From: Candidatus Woesearchaeota archaeon | GTDB lineage: Archaea > Nanobdellota > Nanobdellia > Woesearchaeales > SKGA01 | Assembly (NCBI GenBank): GCA_016926395.1 | Contig: JAFGOT010000019.1 | Span: 1 to 29,146, forward strand | Length of the DNA stretch: 29,146 nucleotides | Direction: 5' to 3' | Shown: positions 2,040-24,032 of the stretch, one piece after another | Layout of the letters: every line of letters begins with the position of its first letter | Position numbering within the stretch: the stretch's first letter is position 1 | Program-made: the position numbers and the translations under genes | The notes under the pieces: model-generated | The model's database searches: none | Seen by the model: the letters and a program-made list of their open reading frames with translations, nothing else | Told to the model about the DNA's origin: nothing

Positions 2040-3527
2040 ATGAACAAATTTAGACAATTAGGTATAGATGAGGATATTTTGTCCTCTATAGAAAATCTTG
2101 GTTTTAGCGAACCAACTGAAATTCAACAAAAAGCAATTCCTGTTGTAATCCAAAAAAAGGATTTGATTGCAGGTAGTGCTACTGGTAGTGGAAAAACTCT
2201 TGCTTTTGGAGCAGGAATAATTCAACACATAAGAAAGGGCGCAGGATTGCAAGCTCTTATTTTAGCACCAACAAGAGAATTAGCTGAACAAATTAGTGAA
2301 TCTCTAAAAACATTTGCTAAACATAAAAAATTAACTGTAGTTTCTATTTATGGTGGTGTTTCACTTAATCCTCAATTTTCTGCACTACAAAAAGCAGACA
2401 TTGTTGTTGGAACTCCTGGAAGAATATTGGATCACATGCAACGTGAAACTATTAATTTAACCAAAGTTAAACATTTGGTTCTTGATGAAGCTGATCGAAT
2501 GCTTGATATGGGTTTTTTAGATGATGTGCGGCGTATTATGAGTCAATGTCCAAAAGAAAAACAAACTCTTCTTTTCTCAGCAACTATCTCTCAAGATATT
2601 AGAGATTTATCTAGAAATTTTATGATTGAGCCTGTTAATATTTCTGCAACTCCTATGGTTGATCCAAGTAAATTAAAACAAGTTTACTACCAAGTTAGTG
2701 GTCCTTTAAAGTTTTCTTTACTTTATCATCTTTTGGCTAATGATACAAAAGGCGGTCTTGTTATGATTTTTTGTAACTCCAGACAGATGGTTGAAACTGT
2801 TGCAAAGAACCTTAAGAAAAACGGGATTGATGCTATGGGTGTTCATGGTGGTCTTTCACAAAACAGACGAAGTGACACTGTAAGTGGTTTTAACAAAGGT
2901 AAAATTACTGCTCTTGTTTGTACAGATGTGGCTGCTCGAGGTCTTGATATTCCTGGAGTTTCGCATGTTTATAATTATGACATTCCAAATGATACAAAGC
3001 AATATGTTCATCGAATTGGCCGAACTGCTCGAGCTGGTAAAGATGGTCTAGTTGTTAATCTTTTATCTCAAAGAGATCATGAGAATTTTGGAAAAGTGGT
3101 TTATGATCACAAAGATTTCAAAATAGAACGAGCTGATCCTCCTGTTGTTAAAAGAATAGAAACTTCTGCTGCTTCAAGCAATGCACGAGGTAATGGTAGA
3201 GGAATGTCAAGAAGTTCTTTCCGTGGTGGCGATCGTCAAGATGGTCGAGGCCGAGATAGAATGAGAACTCAAGGTGAACGTTCACGTCCTTTCGAAAGAA
3301 GAGAAGGTGGAAGTTCTGCTTCTCGAGGTCCATCTCATGGTGGTTCTTCTCGAAGCTCTGATGCTAGACCTCAAGGTTCTGGTTTTAGATCTCGTGGAGG
3401 TCAAGGCGGTCCTTCTCGAAGTTCTTTTGGTTCTCGAGGTTCTTCTGATAATCGTTCACACTCAAGTGATCGATCTCGTCCTAGAATGGGCGGTAATAGA
3501 AGTAACTCCTCTAATCGAAGAGATTAG
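2040..3527 (+). CDS. DEAD-box ATP-dependent RNA helicase (CshA/DeaD-like) with R/G/S-rich disordered tail
   Basis: Q motif GFSEPTEIQ, ATGSGKT, PTRELA, GTPGR, LDEADRM, SAT, ARGLD and HRIGRTARAG are all present. The last ~120 aa are a low-complexity RGS-rich tail. Confidence 0.97.
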   Translation: MNKFRQLGIDEDILSSIENLGFSEPTEIQQKAIPVVIQKKDLIAGSATGSGKTLAFGAGIIQHIRKGAGLQALILAPTRELAEQISESLKTFAKHKKLTVVSIYGGVSLNPQFSALQKADIVVGTPGRILDHMQRETINLTKVKHLVLDEADRMLDMGFLDDVRRIMSQCPKEKQTLLFSATISQDIRDLSRNFMIEPVNISATPMVDPSKLKQVYYQVSGPLKFSLLYHLLANDTKGGLVMIFCNSRQMVETVAKNLKKNGIDAMGVHGGLSQNRRSDTVSGFNKGKITALVCTDVAARGLDIPGVSHVYNYDIPNDTKQYVHRIGRTARAGKDGLVVNLLSQRDHENFGKVVYDHKDFKIERADPPVVKRIETSAASSNARGNGRGMSRSSFRGGDRQDGRGRDRMRTQGERSRPFERREGGSSASRGPSHGGSSRSSDARPQGSGFRSRGGQGGPSRSSFGSRGSSDNRSHSSDRSRPRMGGNRSNSSNRRD

Positions 3528-3552: not shown

Positions 3553-3804
3553 TTATTTTCTTTTATTCTTAAAACATTCATCACAATAAACTTCTGGATT
3601 TCTAGGTTTAAATGGTAAAATGAATCTTTTTTTACACCTTATACATGTAACTTCGGTTGGCCATTTTCTCGCGTTTCCTTTCTCCTTTTCTCTGTCAAAA
3701 TTAATATGTTTATTGAACATTTGAAGACGTGGATTGGTTTTGGATTTAGTTGTGGCTGTTTTTTTAGTTTGAGGTCTTTTTTTTGCTAGTGTTGGTTTTT
3801 TCAT
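3553..3804 (-). CDS. Small basic zinc-ribbon protein (CxxC-x17-CxxC-like family)
   Basis: VTCIRCKKRFILPFKPRNPEVYCDECFK gives CxxC-x16-CxxC. Lys-rich N-terminus, with AGGA upstream of the ATG. Confidence 0.8.
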   Translation of the reverse strand: MKKPTLAKKRPQTKKTATTKSKTNPRLQMFNKHINFDREKEKGNARKWPTEVTCIRCKKRFILPFKPRNPEVYCDECFKNKRK

Positions 3805-3906: not shown

Positions 3907-6096
3907 ATGTTACCAAAGTCACAAGAAAGAATTATGCATTATAAGGATGTTTTATGTTCTATTCCAAGGGAGAACTTTGTTCTCCAAGAATTATTTGGAA
4001 GTGATTTTTTTAGTGGTGTTGCAGTTGTTACAAATGAGAAATTGGCAGGTAGGCTAGAAGATATTAAATTTTTAGACTCTTTAGAGCCTTCTTTAAGAGA
4101 GAGATTTCTAAAGGAGGGAAAAATACTTTCTGCGATAGATCATCCTAATATTCCTAAGGTTTATGATATTATTGAGCATGATGATATTCTGTTATTTAGG
4201 TCTGAAAATATTGAAGGTTTCACTTTAAGAGAGATTTTAGATGAATTAAAAATAAGAAAGCAATCTTTTCCTGAGGATGCTGCTCGTTTTATTATGACAA
4301 AAATTATTTCTGCTTTGAACTATGCACATAATAATTTAAAATATCATAATTCTATCTCTCCACTAATTCATTGTGATATAAAACCCGAGAATATTATTTT
4401 GCAATTAGATGGATTTAAACGTTCTGATGGTCTAAATGATTTTTCTTTAAAACTGATTAATTCCTGTTCGTTTAATCCTTATTTGATTGATTTTGGTATT
4501 GCAAAATTCAAAGAAGAAATAAATGATTCAAGCGGGACTCTTTATTATCTTTCACCCGATCAATTAAATTCAAAATCTCTTGATTGGAGAACTGATATTT
4601 ATCAATTATCTTTGGTTTATTTTGAAATGTTATCTGGTGTTACTCCTTATTCTTATCTTTCCAGACCTAATATTTTAAAATCAAAAAAAAATTCTGATTT
4701 TCGAGTTCTTAAGCGTTATAATATCTCCTCTTCTAATAGGCATTTTATTGAAAAAGGAACTTCATTTTCAGAAAAAAGATTTTCATCTGAATCGGATTTT
4801 ATTTCAAGTTTTCGCAAATTAAACAAACGTGCAAATATTAATAATTTTGTTCGTAAGAATAAAACGCCTGCGCTGGTTATTCTCGCTATTATATTATTGG
4901 TGTCTTTATTTTTTCCAACTTATGCTTACATTGATTATAAAACAAACAGTATTGATGCTATTGTTAATAAAATTAATTCTAATCCTGATCCTAGTTTTGA
5001 TGATCTAACTACTGCATTACATAAAATTCAAAAGCGTGGTTTTGAAAAAAAATATATTGAACCTTTGTTTGCGGGAGATTTTAGAGATAAGGAAACTGGA
5101 GAACCTCTTTATCCAAGTTACTTAGATTCTAATGGTGATTGGGTTTTATCAAGCAAAGACGAGACTGAATCAGGGGTTTTTGTTGGTTTGCTTTTTGAAA
5201 AATCTAATGATTATCCTCAACTTCTTCCTTATGCTATTGAGTATGCAAAACCTTTGTTGAACTCTAGTTATGAGGGATCTCAGCCTTTAAGATTTTATTA
5301 TGGATTAATTCCTGCTTACAAAGCAACTGGTGATGATATTTATTTAATCAAATTAATTAATATTTCTAACTCTTTGATTTCGGATATGAATAAACGACAG
5401 GGATTATTTATGAATGAAGATCTTTTTGTATGTGATTTCTTACTTGATATATACACTTTGACTGGTTATGATTACTATTTTAATTTTGTTGATTCTTATA
5501 TGCGTGGTTATCTATCAAACAATGTTGATGATGATGGTTATGTTTATTCTCTTTCTATGTCTAATTTCACTTTACCTTCTGGCTTAGTTCTTCCTGATGA
5601 CAAAAGTGGTTTGGCTATAATAAAGATGGGGAATCATAATTTGGGGGAGTTTGTTTCTGTTAATGAGTTAAATGAATCTGATTTTAAATCTTCAACTTCC
5701 GTTTTTTCAGTTGATTACTTGGTTCTAATTGATTTATTGAGTTTTTTAGTTAATCTAACTGAAGATGATTTTTATATTGATTATTATGCTTTTTTAAGAG
5801 ATTCTTATTTTGAATATCAAATTGATGATTTTGTTTTTATTTCATACAATACTTTTATTGATTATCCTCTTGATTCTCTTTCAAAGGTTTATTCTATTAA
5901 TGTGTTTTCTGATGACTCTTATTTTGTCAATAAAAAAATTCAAGCATTATTTAATTCTAATATTAATTTAGAATCTAAGAATGGTTTGCTTAGCGGTGTT
6001 GCTTTGCTTGCTTCAGGCAGGATCTATGATAATTCATTAGATTCTTATAAGAACCAAACTTACATTTTAGCTGATTATTATTTTCTAGAAATATAA
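3907..6096 (+). CDS. Single-pass receptor-type Ser/Thr protein kinase with C-terminal degenerate GH88-like (alpha/alpha)6 barrel
   Basis: Kinase motifs: RERFLKEGKILSAIDHPNI, HCDIKPENI, LIDFGIAK, SGTLYYLSPDQ, DIYQLSLVYFEMLSGVTPY. A TM helix (about aa 321-342) follows a basic patch. The outer domain has YPSYLDSNGDWVL..ESGVFVGLL, AYKATGDDIY, IYTLTGYDYY and terminal ADYYFLEI, matching the order of GH88 motifs (WTxGFxxGxLW ... ADYYFLEAL). Confidence 0.88.
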   Translation: MLPKSQERIMHYKDVLCSIPRENFVLQELFGSDFFSGVAVVTNEKLAGRLEDIKFLDSLEPSLRERFLKEGKILSAIDHPNIPKVYDIIEHDDILLFRSENIEGFTLREILDELKIRKQSFPEDAARFIMTKIISALNYAHNNLKYHNSISPLIHCDIKPENIILQLDGFKRSDGLNDFSLKLINSCSFNPYLIDFGIAKFKEEINDSSGTLYYLSPDQLNSKSLDWRTDIYQLSLVYFEMLSGVTPYSYLSRPNILKSKKNSDFRVLKRYNISSSNRHFIEKGTSFSEKRFSSESDFISSFRKLNKRANINNFVRKNKTPALVILAIILLVSLFFPTYAYIDYKTNSIDAIVNKINSNPDPSFDDLTTALHKIQKRGFEKKYIEPLFAGDFRDKETGEPLYPSYLDSNGDWVLSSKDETESGVFVGLLFEKSNDYPQLLPYAIEYAKPLLNSSYEGSQPLRFYYGLIPAYKATGDDIYLIKLINISNSLISDMNKRQGLFMNEDLFVCDFLLDIYTLTGYDYYFNFVDSYMRGYLSNNVDDDGYVYSLSMSNFTLPSGLVLPDDKSGLAIIKMGNHNLGEFVSVNELNESDFKSSTSVFSVDYLVLIDLLSFLVNLTEDDFYIDYYAFLRDSYFEYQIDDFVFISYNTFIDYPLDSLSKVYSINVFSDDSYFVNKKIQALFNSNINLESKNGLLSGVALLASGRIYDNSLDSYKNQTYILADYYFLEI

Positions 6097-6098
6097 TT

Positions 6099-6117
6099 GC
6101 CCAAGGTTCGCTTGGGC
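6099..6117. terminator. GC-rich hairpin between convergent kinase and peptide genes
   Basis: GCCCAAG-GTTCG-CTTGGGC forms a perfect 7-bp stem; an A/T tract at 6118-6132 reads as oligo-T after the peptide stop. Confidence 0.65.
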
Positions 6118-6132
6118 TTAAATAAAAATAAT

Positions 6133-6339
6133 TTAACAACAACTAGCTGATGCAGTGCATGAAATGTGAGGACACCAACTACATTTATACCAACATCCTG
6201 CTGCTAATGGTTGAACATATGTGTACATTGTGCTTGTTCCATCTGGATTCACTGCTTCGGTTTCATCCAAAGCCATTACGCTTGTCATGCTAACAACTAA
6301 AATAGCAACTAGTGCTAAAAGAATTAATATTTTCTTCAT
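6133..6339 (-). CDS. Secreted Cys-rich pre-pro-peptide (candidate signalling or antimicrobial peptide)
   Basis: Sec signal MKKILILLALVAILVVSMTSVMA, acidic pro-region ending VQPLA, and core AGCWYKCSWCPHISCTASASCC with 6 Cys in the last 20 aa. RBS GAGGTG (6352-6347) lies 7 nt from the ATG, and the gene has its own TATA (6383-6376). Confidence 0.85.
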   Translation of the reverse strand: MKKILILLALVAILVVSMTSVMALDETEAVNPDGTSTMYTYVQPLAAGCWYKCSWCPHISCTASASCC

Positions 6340-6346
6340 ATAAATT

Positions 6347-6405
6347 CACCTCTGTTTATCCCTTGCAATTTGCCGTATAAAAACCTTATTGATGTTTTGG
6401 GATAA
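6347..6405 (-). promoter_or_regulatory. Peptide-gene promoter: TATA flanked by inverted GGGATAA boxes, plus RBS
   Basis: Minus strand: TTTTTATA at 6383-6376, GGGATAA at 6362-6356, GAGGTG at 6352-6347. An opposite-orientation GGGATAA lies at 6399-6405. Confidence 0.6.
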
Positions 6406-6410
6406 TTTTT

Positions 6411-7286
6411 CTAGAATTGTATCGCTAGTATTGATGATAATATTCTTTTGATATTCTTATTTATTATGTTCATTTCTGTTTTTAATTCTTTTAATGATTT
6501 AATTTCTTGTTCCATTTCTTCTATTGAGCTTTTTATTCTTGTATATTCTTCAGTCGAGAATTGATAATGTAGATTGTATGTTTGGGTTATTATGTCCGAT
6601 ATTTTTGAGAATATTTTGTTTGTTTCTAAAGATATTATTTTACCTTCTTTTGTTTGTTCTAGGATGTTTGTGAATTCGTTGTTTATGTTATTTATGTTAC
6701 TTATTATGTTGTCATAAAAAGTTCCTGTTTTTTTATTTTCTTTAATTATTATTCGTCTGCAGTAATTAGATAATCTTGATATCGTGGTTTGGTATAATAA
6801 GTTGCTTTCTGTGATGTTGTTTTCATTTATCATTATTGACTCTGTTTTTCTTGCATATTCATTTGTCATTCGAAATATTCTTCTAAATAAATTATTGAAT
6901 TGATCACATGGAGGGTTAGATATGTTTCTTATTGTTGTGCTTTGATTACTTTGTTCTATTATTTCAAATCCAAGTTGTTCTTCATTTAGATATGTGTGTA
7001 TTTGTTTTGTTATGTCTTCGCAGTCAAAATTAATTTTTATTTCGTCATATCCTTGGTTGTGTAATGCTAAAAGAATGTCTTTCCAAGCGTGTTGGTTTTT
7101 TTCGTTTATTATTATTGTTTTTCTTTTAATTTCGTTGTTTTCATTTATTGGTTTAATTAGGAGCCCTTTATCATCTTCAAATACATCTATTTCATCACCT
7201 TTTTGAAGATTACACTCTTTAACCCAATTTGATGGTAATGATATTGTCAGACTGCTTGGTCCGTGGGATATTATTTTTCGTCTCAT
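6411..7286 (-). CDS. AbrB/MazE/SpoVT DNA-binding domain plus PhoU-like helical domains (archaeal phosphate-uptake-regulator family)
   Basis: MRRKIISHGPSSLTISLPSNWVKECNLQKGDEIDV is the typical swapped-hairpin AbrB N-terminus, followed by helical PhoU-like repeats (LFRRIFRM, RLSNYCRRII). Start moved from 7301 to ATG 7286. Confidence 0.85.
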   Translation of the reverse strand: MRRKIISHGPSSLTISLPSNWVKECNLQKGDEIDVFEDDKGLLIKPINENNEIKRKTIIINEKNQHAWKDILLALHNQGYDEIKINFDCEDITKQIHTYLNEEQLGFEIIEQSNQSTTIRNISNPPCDQFNNLFRRIFRMTNEYARKTESIMINENNITESNLLYQTTISRLSNYCRRIIIKENKKTGTFYDNIISNINNINNEFTNILEQTKEGKIISLETNKIFSKISDIITQTYNLHYQFSTEEYTRIKSSIEEMEQEIKSLKELKTEMNIINKNIKRILSSILAIQF

Positions 7287-7290
7287 GTAT

Positions 7291-7352
7291 ATTATGTACA
7301 TAATGTCATACTTAAATATATATTTTACTATTTTCTGGGATAACTTTAGGTG
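7291..7352. promoter_or_regulatory. Divergent promoter with 14-bp palindrome, TATA, GGGATAA box and RBS
   Basis: ATTATGTACATAAT perfect palindrome at 7291-7304; TTAAATAT at 7312-7319; GGGATAA at 7337-7343; AGGTG at 7348-7352. Confidence 0.55.
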
Positions 7353-7361
7353 TAATTTATC

Positions 7362-7673
7362 ATGGGAAAAATAATAAGTTCGAAAAGGAGCGGATCAGAA
7401 ATTTTATTTGAGGTTGAAGTAGGACCTGAAGAAGCCACTATTTTAAATGGTCATTATGATGATGTTCACCTTTTTACTGAACGGGTTGCAAACATTGATG
7501 CGAACATTTCTTCAAGGGGAAAAAATTCAGCTACAAAATACTTTCTTATTCCTCGTCAACTTAGAAAGAATCTTGATTATTTTCAACCTGTTGGTTGTCA
7601 AAAAATAGAGACGGGAGATAAAGTTATCTTTATTTATGTTGTTGATAAAGATGGTAAGCGAGTAACTACTTAG
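7362..7673 (+). CDS. Small conserved DPANN-type protein with AbrB-like hairpin, divergent partner of the AbrB-PhoU gene
   Basis: RBS AGGTG. The segment SRGKNSATKYFLIPRQLRK resembles the AbrB-type 'xxxxIPxxxR' signature. Confidence 0.7.
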   Translation: MGKIISSKRSGSEILFEVEVGPEEATILNGHYDDVHLFTERVANIDANISSRGKNSATKYFLIPRQLRKNLDYFQPVGCQKIETGDKVIFIYVVDKDGKRVTT

Positions 7674-7724
7674 TGTTGTTTTTTTAGTTATTCTTTTAAA
7701 TGGTTATTTTTTTCACTTATTTAT

Positions 7725-7967
7725 ATGGATTCAATACATGGACATGAGGTTATTACTTTTATCAAAGAATCAAAGCCACAAATTTCTAGACATAATTTGG
7801 AAATTGCAATCTCTAAGAAATTTGGGAGTGAAAGCATTTTTCATACTTGTGTTTTAAATAATCTTTCTGCTGCTGATTTAATTGCTTTTTTAGAGCGAGC
7901 AGGAAAATTAGTTGTTCGAAATGGTATTTCTTATATTAATTCGGATTTGATTTGCGATGATGAGTGA
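7725..7967 (+). CDS. yecH: YecH/DUF2492 family probable metal-binding protein
   Basis: SIHGHEV, KFGSESIFHTC, LxAADLIAFL.RAGK and terminal ICD match the YecH motifs (SIHGHEV..FG...FHTCS..C.H). Confidence 0.8.
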   Translation: MDSIHGHEVITFIKESKPQISRHNLEIAISKKFGSESIFHTCVLNNLSAADLIAFLERAGKLVVRNGISYINSDLICDDE

Positions 7968-8016
7968 ATTTTATGATTAATTTTATAAATAGATTTAGAA
8001 CTACGTAATACTTAAT

Positions 8017-8346
8017 ATGACTTTAACTAATATAGTTGGCAATGTCCAAGCAAAAGAAATTATGGATTATGTAGTTGAGCGATATGCTGAATCAGTTGAT
8101 AATTATGCTGCTAATATGGCTAGACTTCCTACAAAGGAGACCATCTTATCAGAAATTCAAGATTTAGCTGAATGTAACAATTGTGATGCTGTTAAATTAT
8201 TCCATCAGGTTACTGTTGACAAAGCATACCAAAAACAACTTGCAAATGCAGGTCTTCGAGTTAGTGCTGGTTTAATCGAGCCTAGTACTGAGTTAAAAAG
8301 ACAACGAGAACACAAGCAGTTTTTAGTGAATAAATATCAACAATGA
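8017..8346 (+). CDS. Hypothetical helical protein
   Basis: 109-aa ORF with a TATA-like TTTTATAAAT (about 7981-7990) about 27 nt upstream and an oligo-T after the stop. Confidence 0.7.
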   Translation: MTLTNIVGNVQAKEIMDYVVERYAESVDNYAANMARLPTKETILSEIQDLAECNNCDAVKLFHQVTVDKAYQKQLANAGLRVSAGLIEPSTELKRQREHKQFLVNKYQQ

Positions 8347-8377
8347 GTTGATTTTATTTTTTTTATTTTTTAGAATT
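8347..8377. terminator. Oligo-T terminator between convergent genes
   Basis: ttttatttttttttattttttag lies between the stops at 8346 and 8378. Confidence 0.5.
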
Positions 8378-9070
8378 TTATTCATCTTCCTCTTCAGTAA
8401 ATATTTCACCAAGAGTTGCTATTTTTTCATGTCTTTCTTTTCTTTTCTTATTGTGATCTTTTTCAAGAAGCATCAATATAACTCCTAAAAGTCCAAGTAT
8501 TATTATTGAGAATATGACATCTTTTCCAGTTAGTGCTTTCTCTTTAAGAACTTCAGGACTGCAAACATCTGAATTTTGTTTGTCATTTTCACCGATCGGT
8601 GCTTCATCTCTTGCTGTTGTTGTTTGATTATCTGTTTCTTTTTCTAAGACTATAGAATTATTATATGGTGAACTAGGATTTTTTTCCGGAATTGATGGGA
8701 TGTCAGCTGTTGTTGAAGATGGTTTTTGTGGTACTTCCCCGGGCACAAAAATTGTTAATTGTTGGTTAGTTACATTGATTGTGTCGTTTAATGTTATGTT
8801 TATTCTGTATATTCCCGGTGTTCTTGGAGCATATATACGACACGTTTGGTAACAATTGTTATCAACACAATATGAACAAGAAATAGTATTTCCATTTGGG
8901 TCTGTTATGAATGAATAGATATCTCTGCTAGTTCCTGGATTTAGATTCATGGATGTGATGGTGAGTGTTGGTAGGCTGTTAACGATGTTTGCAGTAGCTA
9001 ACGCTGCACTAACAAGTCCTATTAGTAAAAGAAATGCTGCCAAATAAGGCACTATTTTCGTGAAAACCAA
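8378..9070 (-). CDS. Membrane-anchored surface protein (signal peptide, small Cys-containing Ig-like domain, P/S/T linker, C-terminal TM with basic tail)
   Basis: TTG 9070 is preferred over ATG 9094 because GAGGT lies 8 nt upstream. Signal IVPYLAAFLLLIGLVSAALA; CSYCVDNNCYQTC; TM VIFSIIILGLLGVILMLL; several N-x-S/T sequons. Confidence 0.75.
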   Translation of the reverse strand: MVFTKIVPYLAAFLLLIGLVSAALATANIVNSLPTLTITSMNLNPGTSRDIYSFITDPNGNTISCSYCVDNNCYQTCRIYAPRTPGIYRINITLNDTINVTNQQLTIFVPGEVPQKPSSTTADIPSIPEKNPSSPYNNSIVLEKETDNQTTTARDEAPIGENDKQNSDVCSPEVLKEKALTGKDVIFSIIILGLLGVILMLLEKDHNKKRKERHEKIATLGEIFTEEEDE

Positions 9071-11769
9071 CTCATCAAACCTCTTTTTTTGCAATGTTTT
9101 TCGATAACTGCTATTGTTTCCTCTTTTGTGGTAACTAGCTTAATTTTATCGGATAATTTATTATCTTGGAAGTTATTTATTATAAAGTCTGCGATTTTGT
9201 TCTTCTTTTTGGTTACTAATTCTTCAAATTGTTTCTTATTTGCTTTTTGAATATATTCATATATGTCAAAAACTGACCTTAGATATGTCTTTCCAATTTT
9301 AATTGCGTTTTTAGGTGTTGTTGGTAATATGTATTTTGTTTTGAATTTTTTTTGCTCTTTTGCCTCTTCACTTAAGAGTTCTTTTCCAGGATTAACTGTT
9401 AAATTTATCAGCAATCCCATAGCAATAATCATAAATATTGAAATTAAACCCCATTTTATTGAATTACTTGATAGTCCAACTACGTTTCCAGTGATTTTAT
9501 TTTCTGTTCCTTCTTTGTAAATTAACACTTGCGCTGATTCTATTGGTTTTTTTATTAGTGTTTTTATTTTATTTGTGTTTGATACTTTTATAGCAAGACC
9601 TTCTTTTGTTTCAATTATTGGGTTGTTATCTGTAGTTTGTATTACATCTTCCTTGTTTATCTCTTTTGGGAGGATAACAAAGAATATAGCATCATCAAGT
9701 GTTGATTCTGATGTAATTTCATAAACGGTCTCTTTATGGTCTTCTGTTTCTATCTCAATTTCTTTTATAGTGTTGGTAAATACTATTTTTGTTTCTTTGT
9801 TATCATAACGCATTGATTTTACTAGTTTATTTGTGTTCGTTGTTGGTTCAAGTCTTAGTGTCCTTATTACTTCTTCATCAAATTCGTCAGTATTAGCAGG
9901 TATTTTAACATCTAAACTTTTAGAATTATCTTCTGTTATTTTTACAGGATATTTTTGAAGTTCATTTTCTAAATTTTCTAAACTCTCTTTTAATTCATCA
10001 AGCTCTTTTATTGTTGTACTTGCCTTTGTTAGTATTGTTTCTATTTTTGATTGAATCTCGTTTAGTTTGTTTTCATTTAGTTGCAAATCTGAAAAATATT
10101 TCTCGTTTAGAATGTTGTTTTTTGTTGTTGATTTTATTAAGTCAATTTTATTTTGATTTTCGTTTATCAAATCTTGAATGTCGCTGATGATTTCAAGTTC
10201 AGTTGAGCTTAGAATTTTGCTTTCTTCTTCTTTTTCTTCTTTTACTTCTTCAATTGTTATTGATTGAACTGCAGATAATAATCCTTCGTTATGATGATCG
10301 TCCACTGGTGAAACTCTATAATTGTATGTGTTTCCAACTTCTACGTTATCATCTTTATAGTAATTTGAAGATGTTCTGTCATATAAATCAAATTCATCGA
10401 CATTAGAATCATTTATTTTTCTATATATGTTATATGTTGCTATATCTTCGTTAGGTGCAAACCATTGCATGAATGAATCTGTTCCTTGTTGAGTTATTTG
10501 TATTGATGTAATTTTTTGTGGTTTTATTGGATCTACAACAAAATATTTGCCTTTTACAATTGAAATTGATTCGTCATTTTCTGTAAGTGCAAATTCGCCA
10601 ATTTGTTTTGCAGTAGATTCTTCTATGTTGAATAATCCCTGCCATTGGTCTCCATCTCCTTCTAATGGAATTACTCTTGTGGTTCCTGATGAAATAAGTT
10701 GATATGTTAATTCAGGATTTTCTACATCGAAATCTAAAATAACTTCCACTTCAAAGATTCCACTTGTTATTTCATCTTTGTCAAATAATATTGTTGCTTT
10801 ATTTTGCTCTTGTTTTTTTACTGTTATTGTTGTTGGATTAGACAGCTTTCCAAATTCATTTTCACAAATAATTTTTGCTTGTGTGTAGTCTGTGTTAAAA
10901 TACCATTCGTGATATGTTTCTGATAAGCTCATTGTTGTTTGCATATACTCTGGATTTGTAATGGATAAATCATATGTATAGTAACACTGTTTTGCATTTA
11001 ATGTGTTAATTCTAATTATTTGATCCCATTTTTTTAAATCGTATGTTTTAGGGTTATAATCAGTTACTTTAGCGTCTGGACTGTTTATACTAAAAATTAT
11101 TTTCTTTGGAAGTGAAAGAACATTATTTGTATTTTTACAAACCACGTTGAATTTTTGTTCCCCTTCATCTAAATATAAGCTTGCAGTGTGTTCTTTTTGA
11201 TCACCATTGAATGTATATTGCATATCATTAAATGTTGTTCTTGAAGAATCATATTTACAGATCGTATTCTGGTCTGTTGTTACTTCCAGAAGGACTGCGG
11301 ATACATCTAAGTCGCCCCTTGGTTTAGCTTGTATTATGTTTGGAGGATTAGTTGTTGCGTTGGCAGGGTTTATGGCAATTGTGTATGCTACTTGAGTTTC
11401 TTTTACAGATGATCCTTGTAATATATTTATATTTACTAAACCAACTTTCTGTTCGCTACACGTACTTTGAAAATTTATATTTCCTAAGTTTATTTCTTGG
11501 TTAGCAGTGTAATTTGCAATAAATAAATTTAATGGGGTACTTATTAAGTTAGAAATGTCGCTTGTTACTTCGATTGTTATGTTGTTGTAGTTTTGTTCCA
11601 AAACAAAGCTTGGTATTGTTTTTGTTGTGGTGTTTGGTTGGTCGCCACAAAGAGCGATATGTTCTTGAGTTATTTCAAATGCTTGAGCAATGCTTGTTAA
11701 TGATAGAGTTAAAACTATTAAAAACAAAATATTTATTGTTGTTTTAGTTTTTTTAGTTTCTGTGTTCAT
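9052..11769 (-). CDS. Large surface protein: Ig/Fn3-like domains, coiled coil, TM and cytoplasmic DUF5752-like domain
   Basis: Signal peptide; Fn3-like MQWFAP..YNIYRK..YYKDDNVEVGNTYNYRVSPVD; heptad-rich region; TM WGLISIFMIIAMGLLINLTV; tail GKTYLRSVFDIYEYI..NKIADFIINNFQDNKLSDKI. Confidence 0.8.
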   Translation of the reverse strand: MNTETKKTKTTINILFLIVLTLSLTSIAQAFEITQEHIALCGDQPNTTTKTIPSFVLEQNYNNITIEVTSDISNLISTPLNLFIANYTANQEINLGNINFQSTCSEQKVGLVNINILQGSSVKETQVAYTIAINPANATTNPPNIIQAKPRGDLDVSAVLLEVTTDQNTICKYDSSRTTFNDMQYTFNGDQKEHTASLYLDEGEQKFNVVCKNTNNVLSLPKKIIFSINSPDAKVTDYNPKTYDLKKWDQIIRINTLNAKQCYYTYDLSITNPEYMQTTMSLSETYHEWYFNTDYTQAKIICENEFGKLSNPTTITVKKQEQNKATILFDKDEITSGIFEVEVILDFDVENPELTYQLISSGTTRVIPLEGDGDQWQGLFNIEESTAKQIGEFALTENDESISIVKGKYFVVDPIKPQKITSIQITQQGTDSFMQWFAPNEDIATYNIYRKINDSNVDEFDLYDRTSSNYYKDDNVEVGNTYNYRVSPVDDHHNEGLLSAVQSITIEEVKEEKEEESKILSSTELEIISDIQDLINENQNKIDLIKSTTKNNILNEKYFSDLQLNENKLNEIQSKIETILTKASTTIKELDELKESLENLENELQKYPVKITEDNSKSLDVKIPANTDEFDEEVIRTLRLEPTTNTNKLVKSMRYDNKETKIVFTNTIKEIEIETEDHKETVYEITSESTLDDAIFFVILPKEINKEDVIQTTDNNPIIETKEGLAIKVSNTNKIKTLIKKPIESAQVLIYKEGTENKITGNVVGLSSNSIKWGLISIFMIIAMGLLINLTVNPGKELLSEEAKEQKKFKTKYILPTTPKNAIKIGKTYLRSVFDIYEYIQKANKKQFEELVTKKKNKIADFIINNFQDNKLSDKIKLVTTKEETIAVIEKHCKKRGLMSWFSRK

Positions 11770-12941
11770 CCTTTTTTTCTAATATATGTTATCAGTAATA
11801 ATGCAACAACAATTGCTATTGCTAAGAATAATAATACATTTTCAGTCGTGATTCCTTTTTCTTCCTGAGGATTAACATTTATTGGAGTTGTTTTCTCAAA
11901 TGTTTCTTTTCCATCATATTGCATTGTTCCTTGAATGAAATATTTTCCTGCTTTTTTTGGATTAAACTCTATTTCAAATGCTATTTCTTCACCAGGATTT
12001 ATTTGTCTTGATTTTGTAGCTATTACTTCTATTAGTTCACCATCAAGTTCGATTGTTCCTACAAATTGTGCTTCTTTAATTAATTGTGTTCCTGTGTTTT
12101 TTGCTAGGGCGTGAATTTTAATCTTGTCACCTGCATTATTCCAAACATTTTCAGGATATAGACTTGTAAATGTTAGTTGTGAACTGGTGCTTCCCCATTC
12201 TAGAATATCAAATGTTAGTAGTTTGCTGTAATCTTGACAGTTAGGAACTTTGACGTTGATAAAGTATTGTCCAGGTTTAAGACTTTGTTCGATTTCTTCT
12301 GTGATTGTTTTTCTTTGTGTAGGTCTAACTATTTCGTTATTTTTTTGACCTGTTATTTCTTCTTTATCATCTTTGTTTGTTATTGTGTATTGTATTTCTG
12401 GTTTTGCGTCGATGTTTCCGTTATTATATATACTAACATCCAGATTTAGCGGATCAAATATTTCTACGTTACTTATTTTTGCATCAACCACTCTACAGTC
12501 AGTTACTCTGTTTGACGTTATCGTTATGTTTAATTTAGAAACAAGGCCTGGTTCTATGATTACGCTAGTTTGCCCTTCGGGTGTTTGGTCTGATTTTATT
12601 GAAAATCTTAATGCGCCTTCATAATTTCCGTTTGCTACTGAATCTCCCGGTTCAATAATCATTTTGATTGTTTTAGGGTTATTTTCTGAAACATAAAATG
12701 AAGTTTCTTCTGGTTCAAATTTTATCCACTTGTTTATTGCTGAATCATCTAATTTCATTTCAACCAGTGTATCTTCTTGAGAATTTACATTTAGGAGAAA
12801 TTCTGTTTCATAATATCCTCCTTGGACCATGTTTGGTATTTCTATTGATGCCGGTCTTAGAGAAATCTGAAGTGCAGTCACATTACTCATTATTGTTAGA
12901 AAGATTAATACTGCTAATAATACTTTGATTGTTTTCGCCAC
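11766..12941 (-). CDS. Membrane-anchored surface protein with three Ig/CARDB-like domains (DUF916/chaperone-like N-domain)
   Basis: GTG start; signal ending VTA|LQISLRPASIEI; NGNYEGALRF; YNNGNIDAKP; KNTGTQ..PKKAGKYFIQGTMQY; C-terminal TM VLLFLAIAIVVALLLITYI followed by RKKG. Overlaps the next gene by 4 bp. Confidence 0.8.
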   Translation of the reverse strand: MAKTIKVLLAVLIFLTIMSNVTALQISLRPASIEIPNMVQGGYYETEFLLNVNSQEDTLVEMKLDDSAINKWIKFEPEETSFYVSENNPKTIKMIIEPGDSVANGNYEGALRFSIKSDQTPEGQTSVIIEPGLVSKLNITITSNRVTDCRVVDAKISNVEIFDPLNLDVSIYNNGNIDAKPEIQYTITNKDDKEEITGQKNNEIVRPTQRKTITEEIEQSLKPGQYFINVKVPNCQDYSKLLTFDILEWGSTSSQLTFTSLYPENVWNNAGDKIKIHALAKNTGTQLIKEAQFVGTIELDGELIEVIATKSRQINPGEEIAFEIEFNPKKAGKYFIQGTMQYDGKETFEKTTPINVNPQEEKGITTENVLLFLAIAIVVALLLITYIRKKG

Positions 12942-13088: not shown

Positions 13089-13150
13089 TTTATAAACTTG
13101 GACGGGATAAATGTATACTGTTTGGGATAAAAAGTTCCTGGTTGGGATTA
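13089..13150 (+). promoter_or_regulatory. TATA box followed by three phased GGGAT(A/T)A boxes
   Basis: TTTATAAA at 13089-13096; GGGATAA at 13104 and 13124, GGGATTA at 13144, giving an exact 20-bp period. Confidence 0.65.
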
Positions 13151-13211
13151 ATCCTAGCAATTCATATTCCCCTCCCAAAAAACGCATCAAATATGCGAGG
13201 TGTGTAAAACA

Positions 13212-14102
13212 ATGAAATTAAAACTATTATTGACTATGTTTGTATTGGTCGGTCTTCTATCTGTTGGTGTTGTTCTTGCAGAAGATGGAACAACTCAGGT
13301 AACAATTCTTAACACTGCCCCTAGTGCAGGAACTCCTCAGTTAAATGATGCTGTTACTGGTGATGAAGTTATGACTTTAACTGCAAATGCTACGACAACT
13401 ATAACTTGTTTTGGTACTGCTTCCGATGCTGATGGCTTAACTGACATTACTGGTGTGAGTGGTGTTATTTGGTCTGCAAACTCAGCTTATGGCTCTGCAG
13501 ATGCTGAACCTAATCATTATAGTGATGCTGATTGTGGATATAATTCGGGTGATGGTTCTTACTCGTGTAGTTTTGACGTTCAATTTTATGCTGATGCAGC
13601 TCTTTGGACTTGTAATGTAACTGCAACAGACAATGCTGCTGATACTGGATCTGCAACTGATACTGCAACCATGAATCAATTAATGGCTTTAGATATTCCT
13701 AACAACACAGACATCGACTTTGGATCTTTATCCGTTGGTCAAAGTGCTGAAGGTGGATCTTTAAATGTTGTATTTGAAAATCAAGGTAATGTTGCATTTG
13801 ATGTAGATGTTGACGCTTGGGAAACTGCAGGTAACTCAAACAGTGCAAATTCATTTAGTTGTACTTCAGGAAACATTGGTATTGGTCAATTAAAAGCTGA
13901 CCTTGTTGATCAAGCATCTTATGCTGCATACACTTACACAATGACCACTTCTGGTTATGTAACTGTTGATGCGAGTTTAGCTCAACAAACAAGTGGTTCA
14001 ACTCCTACAAGCGACACTCTATACTTCGGTCTTCAAATCCCTGGTAGTGTTAGTGGTACTTGTACTGGTGTATTCTCCTTGCAAGCAACTGCAGATGTAT
14101 AA
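13212..14102 (+). CDS. Secreted acidic Cys-containing surface protein; candidate major filament/S-layer-like subunit (module A + terminal module C)
   Basis: ATG 13212 follows the RBS GAGGTG. Signal MKLKLLLTMFVLVGLLSVGVVLA; no TM anchor; T/S/D/G/A-rich. Shares both modules with the next gene and is followed by a strong terminator. Confidence 0.85.
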   Translation: MKLKLLLTMFVLVGLLSVGVVLAEDGTTQVTILNTAPSAGTPQLNDAVTGDEVMTLTANATTTITCFGTASDADGLTDITGVSGVIWSANSAYGSADAEPNHYSDADCGYNSGDGSYSCSFDVQFYADAALWTCNVTATDNAADTGSATDTATMNQLMALDIPNNTDIDFGSLSVGQSAEGGSLNVVFENQGNVAFDVDVDAWETAGNSNSANSFSCTSGNIGIGQLKADLVDQASYAAYTYTMTTSGYVTVDASLAQQTSGSTPTSDTLYFGLQIPGSVSGTCTGVFSLQATADV

Positions 14103-16774: not shown

Positions 16775-16856
16775 GAAATCCAAATTGAACTTCCTTAAGA
16801 GAGGTAACAAATAGTTATTATCTTTGTTTTTGGTTAAACAATCTCGGGGGGAGATT

Positions 16857-19800
16857 ATGCAAGTACAGCGAAAAAACGTATTTATACTGGGAATTCTTTT
16901 ATTAATGACTTTAGTTTTATCCACTACTGCTCAAGCGAGCACGACACTTTTTACGCAAGCACCGGGTCCTAGTTCCACGCCTCTTATTACTCTAGTGGAA
17001 CTAAATGGAAGTGCTTTTTTGTTAGAAAATAATTATTTGTCTGTCACACTTCAAGATCCTGAAGTTGATATTGACACCGTGCATCTAAGTCTTTTTGATC
17101 CCAGTTCAAACATGATTGTAGATGAAGATATTTCTCTATCTGCAGGCTATCCTGTTGGTGTTATTTATAAATTCGATTCATCTATTTTCTCCCTATCAGT
17201 AACTGGAACTTGGTCTATTAATATAACTGCAAATGATAGTGTAAATCATATTTCCACTCAAATAGTAACTTTTAATGTGGTAGTAAAAGATGATGCGGCT
17301 GTTTGGTCTCCTTTATCTGATCAAAATATTAATGAAGATTCTGTTGATGGAACTGTGGTGTATTCCAACCTAAAAAGTCTTTGTACTGATGTTGATACTC
17401 CAATAAAAACATTTACTGCATCAACAATTAGTCCTTATTTTGATGTATATTTCTCTGCTCTTGACAATGATTTGCGAGTTGAAAATATTAGTTCTAATGT
17501 TAATAGTGATGATGTTGGTTTTCAGCAAGTTACTGTTTATTGTAATGGTGTTGGCTCTTCATTTGATGTGTATATTAATTCTATTAATGATGATCCAACT
17601 TTAGCTCTTATGCCTGCACAAACTATTGATGAAGACACACTAAATAATGTTCTTCCTTTAGATTTGGCAACTTATGCTAGTGATGTTGATGGTGATTCTT
17701 TAACCTTCACTGCTACAGGCACTGCTGATCTTAGTGCTGTTGCTATTCCTGATGGTCTTGGTGGAGTCTATATTACTGTTAGCACTTTAACTCCTAATTT
17801 TTATGGTGATGTTTTGGTTGATGTAACTGTTAGTGATGGTAATGGTGGATCTGCTTCTAGATCTTTAACTGTTCATGTTAATGATGTTGATGAAACTGCT
17901 GTTTGGGCTCCTTTATCTGATCAAAATATTCCTGAAGATTCATTTGACGGAACAATTATTTATCCTAACGTTGAGTCTCTTTGTACAGATGTTGATAATC
18001 CAACAAAAACTTTAGTTGCAACTACTACTAGTCCTTATTTTGATGTGTATTTTTCTGCATTTGATGATGAACTTAGAATCGCAAACTTAACTGCAAATAT
18101 TAATGGTGATTCAATCTCTCCACAACCTATTGAATTATTTTGTAATGGTGTTGGAACTTCATTTGATTTAACAATTGATCCTGTTAATGACAATCCTTTA
18201 TTTGGAGTTCTTCCAGCTCAGACAATTGATGAAGATTCTGTAAATGTTGTTCTACCTTTGGACTTGGCAACTTATGCTAGTGATGTTGATGGTGATTCAT
18301 TAACTTTTACTGCAACGGGTGTCCCAGAATTAAGTGCTGTTGCAAATCCTGATGGTTTAGGAGGAGTTTACTTAACAGTTAATTCTTTATCTGCAAATTT
18401 TTATGGTGATGTGGTAATTAATATTGATGTTACTGATGGTAACGGAGGATTGACATCTCAAGGATTATTAATTCACATTCTTAATGTTGATGATGCTGCA
18501 GTTTTGAATTTGCCTGCAAGTTTAAGCGTTAATGAAGATAGTGATGATGGGACTGTTGTTCTTAGTAATGTTAATTCTGTTTGCACCGATGTTGACAGCC
18601 CAGTAGTGGTAAGCGCAACTGATACAAGTTCATTTTATGATTTACAAATAGTTGGTTCTGACTTAGTAATAAATAGTTTGGATGCAGATTACAATGATGT
18701 GGTTGGAACTGCAGTAAATTTCAACTGTAATGGTGTTTTAGGTTCGACTCTTCTTTATGTTCAACCAGTAAATGATAATCCTATTATTAATGGTTTTACG
18801 GGTGCGACTACTGCTTCTGAATATTCTTTAGTACAGTTAACAATTGATGCTAGTGATATTGATTTAGATACATTATCTTATTCTGTTATAAATCCTGTTG
18901 GTGACATGTCTTTTACTGGAAATGTTTTCTCTTGGACTCCTCAGACTTCGGATGTTGGAGTAACTAATGTTAATATTGAAGTAACTGATGGCTTAGCGAC
19001 TGATAATATTACTATTCCTATTACTGTTTTTAGAAATGTTGACTTTGATAATATTTTGATTACAACACCAAACTTTGCACCTTTAGTTGATGTGCAAGAT
19101 GGTGATAATATTGGTTTCTTGATGCCAGGAGACACGATGACTATCGATCTTGATTTAATCAATTCATTAAGTGATGGTCTTTCTGATATGACGATTACTG
19201 CGCAAATAAGTGGTGTTGATGTTGATCAAACGCCCCAATTTAATTTAGCAGCAGGAAGTAATACGAGTAAATCTCTTAGTCTAAACGTGCCTTATTCAGT
19301 TGCATCAGGAAATAATAATCTTGTATTAACCGCATCTGGTTATTCAACTGATGGTTTGGGAAATAATTTCCCTAGACAAGTAGTTTATACTATGCCTATT
19401 TCCATAAACAAAGATTCAAGAAAAATAATTATTCAACAAGAAAGTTTTACTCCAAGCACTGTAACTTGTGTTAGGGATACAACTCTTTCATTTGAATTAG
19501 TAAACATAGGCTTTAATGATGAAACTACTGCTAACACCTTAACCGTTACAATTCCTGGAATTGATTCTTGGCAAACAACTAATGTTGTTGTTCCTGCTGG
19601 AAGCACAAACAATGCAATTCAAATAAACGTTCCTCTAACTGTTCCGTATGTTACTCCTCCGGGTTCATACAATGCGCAGATTCAATTCGTCTATGATAAT
19701 GGGGTAAGTACTGCGAATGCAACATATCCTATAGTTGTAGATTTATGTCCTGTTCCTGCAAGTCTTGGAACGTATGATGAAGATGAAGTTATTGGAACAA

Positions 19801-22262: not shown

Positions 22263-22657
22263 TGAAAACTACTAGAAATGTTTTAATTACTAATGACGAA
22301 CCTAGTAGTGTTTTTTTATTATCTGAATTTTTTAAGATTTATCAGCTTTCAAAAGATGATTTGTATATTAATTCGCTAGTTGCTTATAGTGGTTTAGAAG
22401 CTAAACATGTTGTTGAAAATCGTGAAGATCTTGATTTAGTTATAATGAATTGGGAAATGCCAAAAATGTCTGGTATTCATGCAACTGAGTTAATCAGGGA
22501 GATAAGACCAGATTTACCTGTTTTATTGTATTCTGCTTATGTTGGCAATCCTGTTTATGAACCTTTGATAAAATCATATTTTGACGATTCTATTCCTAGC
22601 CCTATAAATATTAATTCATTCACTAAAATTGTTGATAAATATTTGTTAAAGAAATAA
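22262..22657 (+). CDS. Stand-alone pseudo-receiver (CheY-like fold, phosphoacceptor Asp replaced by Asn)
   Basis: LITNDEP, LDLVIMNWEMPKMSGIHA, PVLLYSAY and SIPSPIN, against the canonical VDD, MDxxMP and KP. TAATG overlap with the adhesin stop. Confidence 0.85.
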   Translation: MKTTRNVLITNDEPSSVFLLSEFFKIYQLSKDDLYINSLVAYSGLEAKHVVENREDLDLVIMNWEMPKMSGIHATELIREIRPDLPVLLYSAYVGNPVYEPLIKSYFDDSIPSPININSFTKIVDKYLLKK

Positions 22658-22659
22658 CT

Positions 22660-23049
22660 TTAAATTACATATCTTTCTAGTATTTCTTGAAATTTTATTT
22701 CGTTTATTGGTTTTTCAAGACAACTGTTAAAACAGTTTGATGATTTATAAATTTCATTTATTCCCATATGTGCTGAATGTAGTATTATTGGAATATTTTT
22801 GTATTGATCTTTTATTTTTTTGGCTGCTTCTTCCCCATTTAATACTGGCATTTTCCAGTCCATAAATATTAATGAGATTTCTTTCTTATTATTCATTAAT
22901 TTATTAGTTATTGTTATTGCTTCCAAACCATTTGTTGCTTCATAAACATTTATTCTATTTTCTGCAGTCTGATAGTCTTCTATTTTTATTCTTAATAAGT
23001 ATCTATTTGGAATCTCATCGTCTACTATCGAAACGATTTTTTCATTCAT
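22660..23049 (-). CDS. Stand-alone CheY-like response regulator receiver (canonical)
   Basis: IVDDEIPNR, LIFMDWKMPVLNGEEA, IILHSAH, LEKPI. ATG 23049 is preferred over 23103 because a TATA-like TATAAATA lies about 25 nt upstream. Confidence 0.88.
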   Translation of the reverse strand: MNEKIVSIVDDEIPNRYLLRIKIEDYQTAENRINVYEATNGLEAITITNKLMNNKKEISLIFMDWKMPVLNGEEAAKKIKDQYKNIPIILHSAHMGINEIYKSSNCFNSCLEKPINEIKFQEILERYVI

Positions 23050-23099
23050 TAATGTGCTTTTTTGTTTAGAAATATTTATAGTTATTGTTTTGAGTATTT

Positions 23100-24032
23100 T
23101 CACTTTATAAGCGAAATATAATATTTATCCTGTTTTAATTTTTTATGTCCATATTTTTCTAAGAACTGTTTGTTAAGTTCGACTGATTTAAAACGAATTC
23201 CTGATTCATTACTGGTGCTTCCCAAAACTTTGTCTTTTCTTTGTTTATTAATAAAAATGTGTTTTAGATATCTGGCGTTACTTCTTCTTATAACATATTT
23301 AGTGTATTCTATTTCTTTTTTACATTCTTGGTGGTCAGGTCCTTCTGTTGCGACGCAAACCGGACATCTGTTTGTTTCTTTAAATTGATTTGGTGAGAAT
23401 AAGTGTTTATAATCTGAAACTTCCAGTATTTTTTTGTTTGGATTGTACATTGCAAGTTCTGGTAGGTATATTCCTTTGTGTTTTATGTATCTTGGTTTGG
23501 TTGCATTTTCTCCAATCGTTCTTTGATGAAGTGCCCAAATTATGAGTTCTGCTTGATTAAATTTTCTAATATCATAAAAAGGTCTTTGAAAATAGTTATT
23601 TCCAACTTGTTGTTTATTAAAACCTCTTTTGTTAACTAGTTTATCAACCCGTTGTTCTATGTTTGATTGTTTAAAATCGGTTTCTGATTGTAGAAAAACA
23701 AATCCAGGTGTAGCATCTGTTTTTTCATTTATGTCTATGACATAATCAATTATTTTTTCAAGCATTCCAAGAAGTTCTCGTCTATCGTTATCTAAAAGCG
23801 TAGAATCGTGCTCGTATGAGAAATTAATTAAGTTTTTTAGTTCTTGTTCACCACTGATTGCAATTATTTGGTGAAGATTATTTTTGTGATCTACAAATTG
23901 AAAGATGTTATTTTCTTTTTCTATTTTTTTTGCGACTGTATTGCTCTCTAAGAAATCGAACATTTCTTCTCTTCTTTTTGCCAGAGCACTTTTTTTAGTC
24001 ATTTTTCCATAATTGGTATGTATTATTTCCAA
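23100..24032 (-). CDS. Hypothetical protein with CPxC..H..C segment
   Basis: 310-aa ORF; the TTG start is preceded by GGAGTG (alternative ATG 24002). No family recognised. Confidence 0.7.
   Translation of the reverse strand: MEIIHTNYGKMTKKSALAKRREEMFDFLESNTVAKKIEKENNIFQFVDHKNNLHQIIAISGEQELKNLINFSYEHDSTLLDNDRRELLGMLEKIIDYVIDINEKTDATPGFVFLQSETDFKQSNIEQRVDKLVNKRGFNKQQVGNNYFQRPFYDIRKFNQAELIIWALHQRTIGENATKPRYIKHKGIYLPELAMYNPNKKILEVSDYKHLFSPNQFKETNRCPVCVATEGPDHQECKKEIEYTKYVIRRSNARYLKHIFINKQRKDKVLGSTSNESGIRFKSVELNKQFLEKYGHKKLKQDKYYISLIK

Follow-up and report, generated by a model that had tools for sequence, protein, structure and literature searches.

A small archaeal genome that encodes a secreted peptide with six cysteines raises the question of what such a peptide is for. 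We addressed this question for a 29,146-nt stretch of DNA from a Candidatus Woesearchaeota archaeon (contig JAFGOT010000019.1; the whole stretch is called the window hereafter), in which an initial annotation had described an open reading frame (ORF) of 68 amino acids (aa) as the precursor of a pheromone or archaeocin. The genome to which the window belongs is 1.0 Mb in size, has a G+C content of ~31% and is 82.5% complete. Comparison of related loci showed that the peptide gene belongs to a compact four-gene module, together with genes for a receptor-type Ser/Thr kinase, an AbrB/SpoVT-domain regulator and a small conserved protein of 103 aa (Table 1). We propose, with a probability of roughly 45%, that the peptide is the extracellular ligand of the kinase encoded convergently to it, within a self-regulated loop.

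The layout of the precursor was read directly from its sequence. The signal region consists of an n-region (MKK), a hydrophobic h-region and a c-region ending in V-M-A, which fits the -3/-1 rule, so that cleavage after residue 23 is predicted. The features of a Sec-type signal (a basic n-region, an h-region of at least 10-15 residues and small residues at -3 and -1) are kept across 31 homologues, and two matches to archaeal signal peptidase I (TIGR02228) above the curated cut-off were found in the window's genome. The spacer that follows carries four acidic residues and no basic ones, and the core, C49-x3-C53-x2-C56-x4-C61-x5-C67-C68, runs directly into the stop codon. No lipoprotein, pilin-type or C-terminal sorting motif was found in the peptide sequence. 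Two plus-strand ORFs overlap the gene (6150-6293 and 6221-6343) and are without comparable homologue support. The Sec signal, the acidic VQPLA spacer and the six-Cys core named in the initial annotation were all recovered, and a family of homologues confirms that this pre-pro-peptide layout is genuine and conserved. The peptide gene is a real gene and no chance ORF.

To delimit this family we combined word-based and profile searches. The closest relative (P0001), found by the word-based search, is 90% identical to the window peptide, and five of the seven differences between the two fall within the last 11 residues. A three-member profile retrieved 13 representatives among 1.84 billion proteins, all of 68-99 aa and all matching end to end; a 21-member profile retrieved 20 clusters (E 1e-24 to 2e-6), bringing the family to ~30 homologues of ~70 aa each. 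Most of the weak peptide matches in relatives (E 0.003-0.1) covered the signal peptide only and were discarded; genomes G128 and G259 yielded matches of this kind alone and were left out of account. No paralogue was found in the window's own genome, where a single match (C30, E 0.006) placed residues 4-61 within a 142-aa frame. In the alignment of 31 sequences, C1, C3, C5 and C6 were invariant, C2 and C4 were present in 30, and the protein terminated at the CC pair in 30; the exception to the six-Cys rule (G279) has four Cys, C2 and C4 being missing together, and one member has a seventh Cys further upstream. By our own count a P-[M/L] dipeptide precedes C1 by 2-5 residues in 21 of the 31, and the Ser and Thr residues of the core were not conserved. 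Such an even, conserved Cys framework is that of disulfide-rich peptides, and the core is most likely held by its six Cys as disulfides. The joint loss of C2 and C4 in G279, the only pairing evidence, suggests a C2-C4 bridge, in which case C1 and C3 would probably pair with the terminal CC.

Pfam and NCBIfam returned nothing significant for the peptide, and the best ESM Atlas score (0.75) lay in the noise range. An AF2 model of the peptide reached a pLDDT of ~80 in the core; Foldseek gave no match to it and VIA-align matched the signal helix only (Z <=2.3), the core being too small for fold searches. All members with a named source are 'hypothetical protein' entries from metagenome-assembled genomes of Nanoarchaeia, Woesearchaeota or Nanoarchaeota. 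The homologues fit the initial annotation's guess of a DPANN archaeon, and its statement that it knew of no such peptide there agrees with Pfam, NCBIfam and the searched literature, in which no description was found; its idea would have fallen had no homologue kept the Cys spacing, and the homologues do keep it. Its remark that small ORFs often go unannotated does not hold for this family, as NCBI records do call these genes. The family is new and undescribed, and of a familiar kind, that of secreted pre-pro-peptides with a Cys framework.

To analyze the genomic setting of the peptide gene, we used the C-terminal domain of the neighbouring kinase (the ectodomain) as the anchor for locus searches. 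It matched proteins in five of 400 genomes sampled from the order, and in all five a family peptide is encoded convergently to the 3′ end of the kinase gene. Scanning metagenome contigs with an ectodomain alignment added four more loci, and the three that extend past the kinase stop codon also carry a convergent peptide gene. The arrangement is therefore found in 8/8 loci with enough downstream DNA; in the window, 37 nt separate the end of the kinase gene from the peptide stop codon. All seven other loci with DNA extending far enough contain a homologue of the regulator (phmmer E 5.5e-41 to 3.6e-77), as do two more distant loci, L052 and L053. In six loci, the window included, the regulator gene immediately precedes the peptide gene in the same orientation; in two it is one gene away. 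The 103-aa protein is encoded divergently from the regulator in six loci (the window, L044, L045, L046, L048 and L049), its homologues sharing 47-66% identity with the window copy. Pfam, NCBIfam and the PDB yielded no match for it, and we call it AbrB-like from a motif only. The label 'PhoU-like' for the C-terminal helical part of the regulator was not supported by Pfam, NCBIfam or a PDB profile and was dropped in favour of AbrB-domain regulator. An all-against-all comparison of the flanks of 10 loci revealed nothing conserved beyond the four genes, and no transporter, immunity gene, protease or maturase. A kinase homologue (P0015) and a peptide homologue (P0030) of a 'Candidatus Nanoarchaeia archaeon' probably share a 630,824-bp contig. 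The linkage of a peptide gene to a membrane sensor kinase and a transcription factor, as in peptide pheromone-receptor modules, is thus found in 8/8 loci and in the two distant ones.

The module is rare. In a phylum-wide sample of 401 genomes the ectodomain was found only in the window's own genome and in two weak matches, and six congeners of this archaeon within the order sample gave no ectodomain protein match. In 13 congeneric genomes no DNA match to positions 3907-12000 was found except for one of 66 nt inside the regulator gene, whereas the DEAD-box helicase gene (2040-3527) and zinc-finger gene (3553-3804) just upstream are conserved there at 66-77% identity. The region that holds the module is therefore variable and was probably acquired.

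The kinase itself combines two domains on either side of a single transmembrane helix. Its HxDxKxxN and DFG motifs are kept and are invariant in five homologues. The protein has no N-terminal signal, basic residues precede the transmembrane helix and the C-terminal toroid follows it, so that the toroid should face outward. When a profile of ten ectodomains was compared with the PDB, GH88 unsaturated glucuronyl hydrolases (UGL) were matched at E 6e-24 to 3e-13, and LanC-like proteins at E 0.3-0.8. An AF2 model of the ectodomain (pLDDT 89.6, pTM 0.90) gave the same answer, the ten best Foldseek matches all being GH88 enzymes, with TM-scores of ~0.6-0.69. The ectodomain is a GH88 homologue by sequence and by predicted fold. 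GH88 enzymes use a pair of catalytic Asp residues, D115/D175 in the Streptococcus agalactiae UGL and D88/D149 in the Bacillus UGL; PDB entry titles mention the mutants D115N, D175N and D88N. In the HMMER alignment D115 falls on a Pro in the window ectodomain, and across ten homologues the position is occupied by P/G/V/Y/S/E/E/E/A/G; the second Asp is of uncertain assignment. Judged by this alignment, at least one catalytic residue has been lost, and in our reading the protein is a receptor kinase that senses through a disabled glycosidase toroid.

With a Sec-type signal on the peptide and a toroid expected to face outward, the two would meet in the same compartment, which we count in favour of a ligand. 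The strictness of the peptide-kinase linkage, for an ectodomain this rare, argues in the same direction, as does the conservation of the four genes only, with no immunity, transport or modification gene among them. We count on the same side the intact kinase motifs, the character of the ectodomain, which resembles a binding module more than an enzyme, and the GGGATAA boxes enriched ahead of the peptide genes (see below).

Table 1. Coordinates of the module's features in the window and of the peptide ORFs in the two distant loci.
Feature	Position	Strand	Remark
Receptor-type Ser/Thr kinase gene, 729 aa	3907-6096	plus	tail-to-tail with peptide gene
Hanks kinase domain	kinase residues 61-283	plus	Pkinase E 4e-27
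Single transmembrane helix	~residues 321-342, nt 4867-4932	plus	
GH88-like toroid ectodomain, ~385 aa	residues 343-729, nt 4933-6093	plus	
Hairpin	6099-6117		between convergent stops of kinase and peptide genes
Peptide precursor gene, 68 aa	6133-6339	minus	ATG start; stop codon 6133-6135
Six-Cys core	residues 49-68, nt 6136-6195	minus	
Acidic spacer with VQPLA	residues 24-48, nt 6196-6270	minus	
Predicted signal peptide	residues 1-23, nt 6271-6339	minus	read from sequence
Shine-Dalgarno-like GAGGTG	6347-6352	minus	7 nt upstream of ATG
GGGATAA box	6356-6362	minus	between TATA box and start codon
BRE/TATA-like AAGGTTTTTATA	6376-6387	minus	
Second box, TTATCCC on minus strand	6399-6405	minus	just upstream of TATA box
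AbrB/SpoVT-domain regulator gene, 296 aa	6411-7301	minus	directly upstream of peptide gene, same strand
Small conserved protein gene, 103 aa	7362-7673	plus	divergent from regulator; AbrB-like motif YFLIPRxLR
Distant peptide ORF, L052	2444-2743	minus	ends …DCEIPPGYPNPCAPYS
Distant peptide ORF, L053	1291-1476	plus	ends …DDPCIPPPPPYPNNCH

The expression signals of the peptide gene were compared over the 110 nt upstream of all eight peptide genes. A GAGGTG or GGGGTG element stands at the equivalent place in L043, L047, L048 and L049, and a ATAAGGTTTATA(TA) element at the place of the B recognition element (BRE)/TATA-like sequence in L047, L048 and L049. The heptamer GGGATAA/TTATCCC occurs nine times in the 920 nt upstream of the eight genes, against 0.13 occurrences expected from the rest of the loci (Poisson P ~3e-14), an enrichment of ~70-fold, and is present in seven of the eight loci. 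Its arrangement in L043, L047, L048 and L049 is that of a dyad, GGGATAA-N12/13-WTATCC, placed immediately ahead of the conserved ATAAGGTTTATA(TA), while the window promoter has one copy upstream of its TATA box, which is one half of the dyad of the orthologous promoters, and one downstream. The leader of the small AbrB-like gene also carries a GGGATAA box in the window (7337-7343), L047 and L048. These data are good evidence that the GGGATAA boxes are a conserved operator, and we infer that the AbrB-type regulators of the module are the proteins that bind it. Two more copies of the box, 20 nt apart, were seen at window positions 13104-13130, upstream of a 300-aa gene (13200-14102) that has no Pfam match and adjoins large surface-protein genes; the module's regulon may reach this surface locus. 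Repeated ATGTACA-type palindromes, e.g. atgtacattatgtacat, were seen in the divergent promoter that separates the regulator gene from the small AbrB-like gene (L045:600-700, L047:3151-3361, L048:5031-5135, L049:2313-2420). They differ from the GGGATAA box and may serve autoregulation as a second operator. At the other end of the peptide gene a T-run, TTATTTTTATTT, directly follows the stop codon, and the hairpin between the convergent stops has 7 bp (five of them G-C) and a 5-nt loop, with a folding energy (dG) of -11.6 kcal/mol (z = -3.0); 0/200 shuffles folded equally well. The hairpin is not conserved in the other loci, where T-runs only are found. The TATA element, the GAGGTG ribosome-binding site and the 7-bp hairpin mentioned in the initial annotation were all located.

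The two weak ectodomain matches of the phylum-wide sample come from genomes of another order of the same class (G503 and G478). In the distant loci L052 and L053 the layout is again an AbrB regulator, a small ORF with a signal peptide and a convergent kinase-toroid gene. By contrast with the window, the small ORFs there end in a proline-rich C-x10-C loop (PCIPPPPPYPNNC and DCEIPPGYPNPC) and not in a six-Cys core, and they are unrelated to the six-Cys family. Because a different peptide occupies the slot that is kept in these loci, the slot for a secreted Cys peptide is older than the six-Cys family. The peptide type changes together with the divergence of the ectodomain, and the C-x10-C peptides may be a second peptide class for such modules. 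That the slot is kept while peptide and ectodomain change together further argues that the former is the ligand of the latter.

On the proposal that the peptide is the ligand of the kinase, the pre-peptide would be exported by Sec and relieved of residues 1-23 by signal peptidase I, leaving the acidic pro-piece and a core of ~20 residues that would fold around its Cys framework. Outside the cell the peptide would meet the outward-facing toroid, a GH88 fold reused as a binding module, and its putative binding would alter kinase activity inside. The kinase would then act, presumably by phosphorylation, on the AbrB-type regulators of the module, one or other of which would recognise the GGGATAA boxes in both the peptide promoter and that of the small AbrB-like gene, so that an autocrine or quorum-like loop is closed. 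Across the eight related loci, peptide divergence followed ectodomain divergence (Mantel r 0.78) more closely than regulator divergence (r 0.55), which is weak support at this sample size and relatedness.

Several observations weigh against this proposal. The leader contributes more to the Mantel correlation (r 0.75) than the core does (r 0.50), and the adjacency of the genes also fits a relation between regulator and target. A domain derived from a glycosidase might sense a sugar instead of a peptide; in addition, the segment with the second catalytic Asp (D175) is a deletion in the HMMER alignment and a nearby E-D is a possible counterpart, so that residual enzyme activity is possible. As to the disulfides, the search of the 82%-complete genome turned up neither VKOR nor any clear DsbA-type oxidoreductase, Thioredoxin_4 matches being sub-threshold only, and relatives of this organism often live without oxygen. 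Taking these points into account, we regard the peptide and the kinase as the best candidate so far, on comparative sequence grounds, for a peptide signal and its receptor in archaea. A more far-reaching version would make them the first gene-encoded peptide signal and cognate receptor in Archaea, with a Sec-secreted six-Cys peptide perceived by a Hanks-type kinase through a disabled glycosidase toroid and with AbrB feedback on a GGGATAA operator, the whole being a self-contained, horizontally mobile DPANN 'pherotype' cassette in which peptide and ectodomain co-diversify; we put this forward tentatively, and on balance hold it to be rather doubtful. Such a cassette may be usable for kin sensing or host-associated density sensing.

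The best surviving rival takes the peptide to be an output of the module: an effector or antimicrobial that is secreted, either archaeocin-like or directed against the host of what is probably an episymbiont, and whose expression the kinase-regulator pair turns on when the ectodomain senses a glycan, for instance a uronic-acid polymer of the host surface. We consider this unlikely. It would account for the sugar-enzyme descent of the ectodomain, which keeps the GH88-conserved residues W71, D315 and D382 (domain numbering), and for the operator-like boxes conserved in the peptide promoters, regulators being frequently encoded beside their targets; the other peptide in the same slot of L052 and L053 is what one would expect of exchangeable cargo, and the clustering near the C-terminus of the differences from P0001 is a pattern common in toxins, and also in pheromones. 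An effector would be harder to reconcile with the 10 loci compared, which share neither an immunity gene nor a dedicated exporter nor tandem copies, or with the composition of the peptide, which is neither amphipathic nor cationic (the predicted post-signal peptide is acidic, and the 20-residue core has one Lys and one His). Linkage to one kinase is moreover absolute, whereas cargo genes usually wander. The 'pheromone or archaeocin' of the initial annotation has thus parted into two unequal halves: the first gains from the invariable pairing with a receptor-type kinase, while the second loses by the lack of conserved immunity genes, transporters and tandem copies.

It is also conceivable, at markedly longer odds, that the hydrophobic N-terminus is not cleaved and that the peptide, instead of diffusing, serves the kinase as a small co-receptor or subunit with a type-II membrane anchor. 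A hydrophobic stretch of ~20 residues is sufficient to span the membrane, and a stable complex would be in keeping with the strict one-to-one linkage to a membrane protein. In the majority of the 31 members, though, small residues stand at -1 and -3 (VMA, ALA, AFA, VAA and similar) and acidic residues follow, which is the usual signal peptidase I pattern, and the genome has genes for that enzyme.

A third possibility, that the Cys bind metal outside the cell (chelating Zn, Cu or Fe, or as a small Fe-S peptide) and that the module senses or handles metal, we judge very improbable. The spacing C-x3-C-x2-C is that of radical-SAM clusters and drew weak matches to the QueE and MiaB models, but these NCBIfam matches (E 0.04-0.06) are at chance level, far under the cut-offs, and the triad is broken in the four-Cys homologue. 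Export of Sec type, with no twin-arginine motif, means that a cofactor could not cross. The apparent lack of disulfide-forming enzymes in the incomplete genome would suit a metal ligand, as would a putatively metal-binding DUF2492 protein (Pfam assigns the family no function), encoded in the window 400 bp past the module; DUF2492 is, however, not conserved in the other loci. The reading of the motif as a radical-SAM-like Fe-S CxxxCxxC was accordingly rejected.

Next to no credence can be given to a precursor of a ribosomally synthesized and post-translationally modified peptide (lanthipeptide, sactipeptide or ranthipeptide-like) with the kinase as part of a LanL/LanKC-type synthetase. In its favour are the many Cys, Ser and Thr residues of the core, the superficial likeness between a kinase-alpha/alpha toroid fusion and lanthionine synthetases of class III/IV, and a weak match to the NCBIfam LanL model. 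However, that match covers the kinase domain only (32.8 bits against a cut-off of 650), the toroid belongs with GH88 and not with LanC (E-values above), has no Cys or His invariant among homologues and thus no Zn ligands, no lyase domain is present, the transmembrane helix puts kinase and toroid on opposite sides of the membrane, and the core Ser and Thr vary. The related candidate of a radical-SAM modified Cys-rich peptide (SCIFF, ranthipeptide or sactipeptide) was rejected too, as no adjacent radical-SAM or other maturase gene is conserved across loci and the leader is a predicted cleavable Sec export signal.

Other genes of the window were noted in passing. The DUF2492 protein (7725-7967, E 3e-20) is encoded just beyond the module. 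Further along, positions 16824-22262 encode an 1812-aa protein with cadherin-like, Big_9 and He_PIG immunoglobulin-like domains. This product is probably a giant surface adhesin; its gene is followed by a pair of genes with receiver domains (22262-22657, plus strand; 22660-23103, minus strand). A YkuD-type L,D-transpeptidase domain (26017-26523, E 2e-15) is encoded here in an archaeon, and an overlapping ASCH-domain gene (26513-26863) comes after it.

A four-gene module with a Ser/Thr kinase whose sensor derives from GH88 has no described counterpart in the libraries and literature searched. Among its closest analogues in logic are the plant pairs of Cys-rich peptides and receptor-like kinases (SCR/SP11-SRK, EPF-ERECTA, LURE-PRK6; PMC4082320), in which, as here, a small secreted pre-peptide with a Cys framework is matched with a single-pass Ser/Thr kinase; at the plant S-locus the genes for ligand and receptor are tightly linked and diversify together, which is comparable with the module. 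There is no relation of sequence or fold between the two, the host here is an archaeon, the ectodomain is a GH88 toroid and not a leucine-rich repeat, S-domain or malectin, and peptide binding is putative. Peptide quorum sensing of Gram-positive bacteria (agrD-agrC, comC-comD) likewise groups a peptide gene with the genes for its membrane receptor kinase and a transcription factor, and is autoregulated through repeated operators in the promoter of the peptide gene. Its receptor, however, is a polytopic histidine kinase with a response regulator, in place of a Hanks-type Ser/Thr kinase with AbrB-type regulators, and whereas export in the module would be by Sec, no AgrB- or ComAB-type processing or export gene is present in the loci. 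Heat-stable enterotoxin and guanylin-type peptides are closely similar in layout and size (a 72-aa pre-pro-peptide with a C-terminal six-Cys core of ~19 aa, ligand of a single-pass receptor enzyme); Cys spacing and receptor class differ and there is no Pfam match, so that the analogy is one of form only.

On the receptor side, the GH88 unsaturated glucuronyl hydrolases (PDB 3wiw, 3anj, 2zzr, 1vd5) are homologues of the ectodomain by profile and predicted fold; unlike them, it stands behind a kinase and a transmembrane helix, with the first catalytic Asp replaced and the segment of the second shortened. The PASTA-domain kinases (PknB/PrkC/Stk1) also consist of a Hanks kinase, one transmembrane helix and an extracellular ligand-binding domain, and the best NCBIfam match of the window kinase domain is to this group (99 bits, against a cut-off of 450). 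AbrB is, moreover, reported to be a substrate of Bacillus Ser/Thr kinases. Their ectodomain is unrelated, and their ligand is a cell-wall fragment and not a gene-encoded peptide. We know of no archaeal Ser/Thr kinase with a known extracellular ligand.

Cell-to-cell signalling in archaea is poorly known. A passage of a 2016 review calls the knowledge of archaeal signal transduction 'rather scarce' (PMC5007285), and a survey of quorum-sensing genes in the Candidate Phyla Radiation (CPR) and DPANN concerned homologues of known bacterial systems only (PMC7567580). Against this background, a compact four-gene module can be defined from sequence alone; it is confined to lineages that are rare and uncultivated. 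Should the peptide prove to be an effector instead, it would still be a new DPANN-specific family of secreted peptides with a defined regulator. If it is the ligand of its kinase, the module would be an archaeal counterpart of the plant logic of peptide and receptor kinase, and an example of a receptor domain derived from a glycosidase fold. Since DPANN archaea live attached to other cells, the module may bear on the recognition of their partners.

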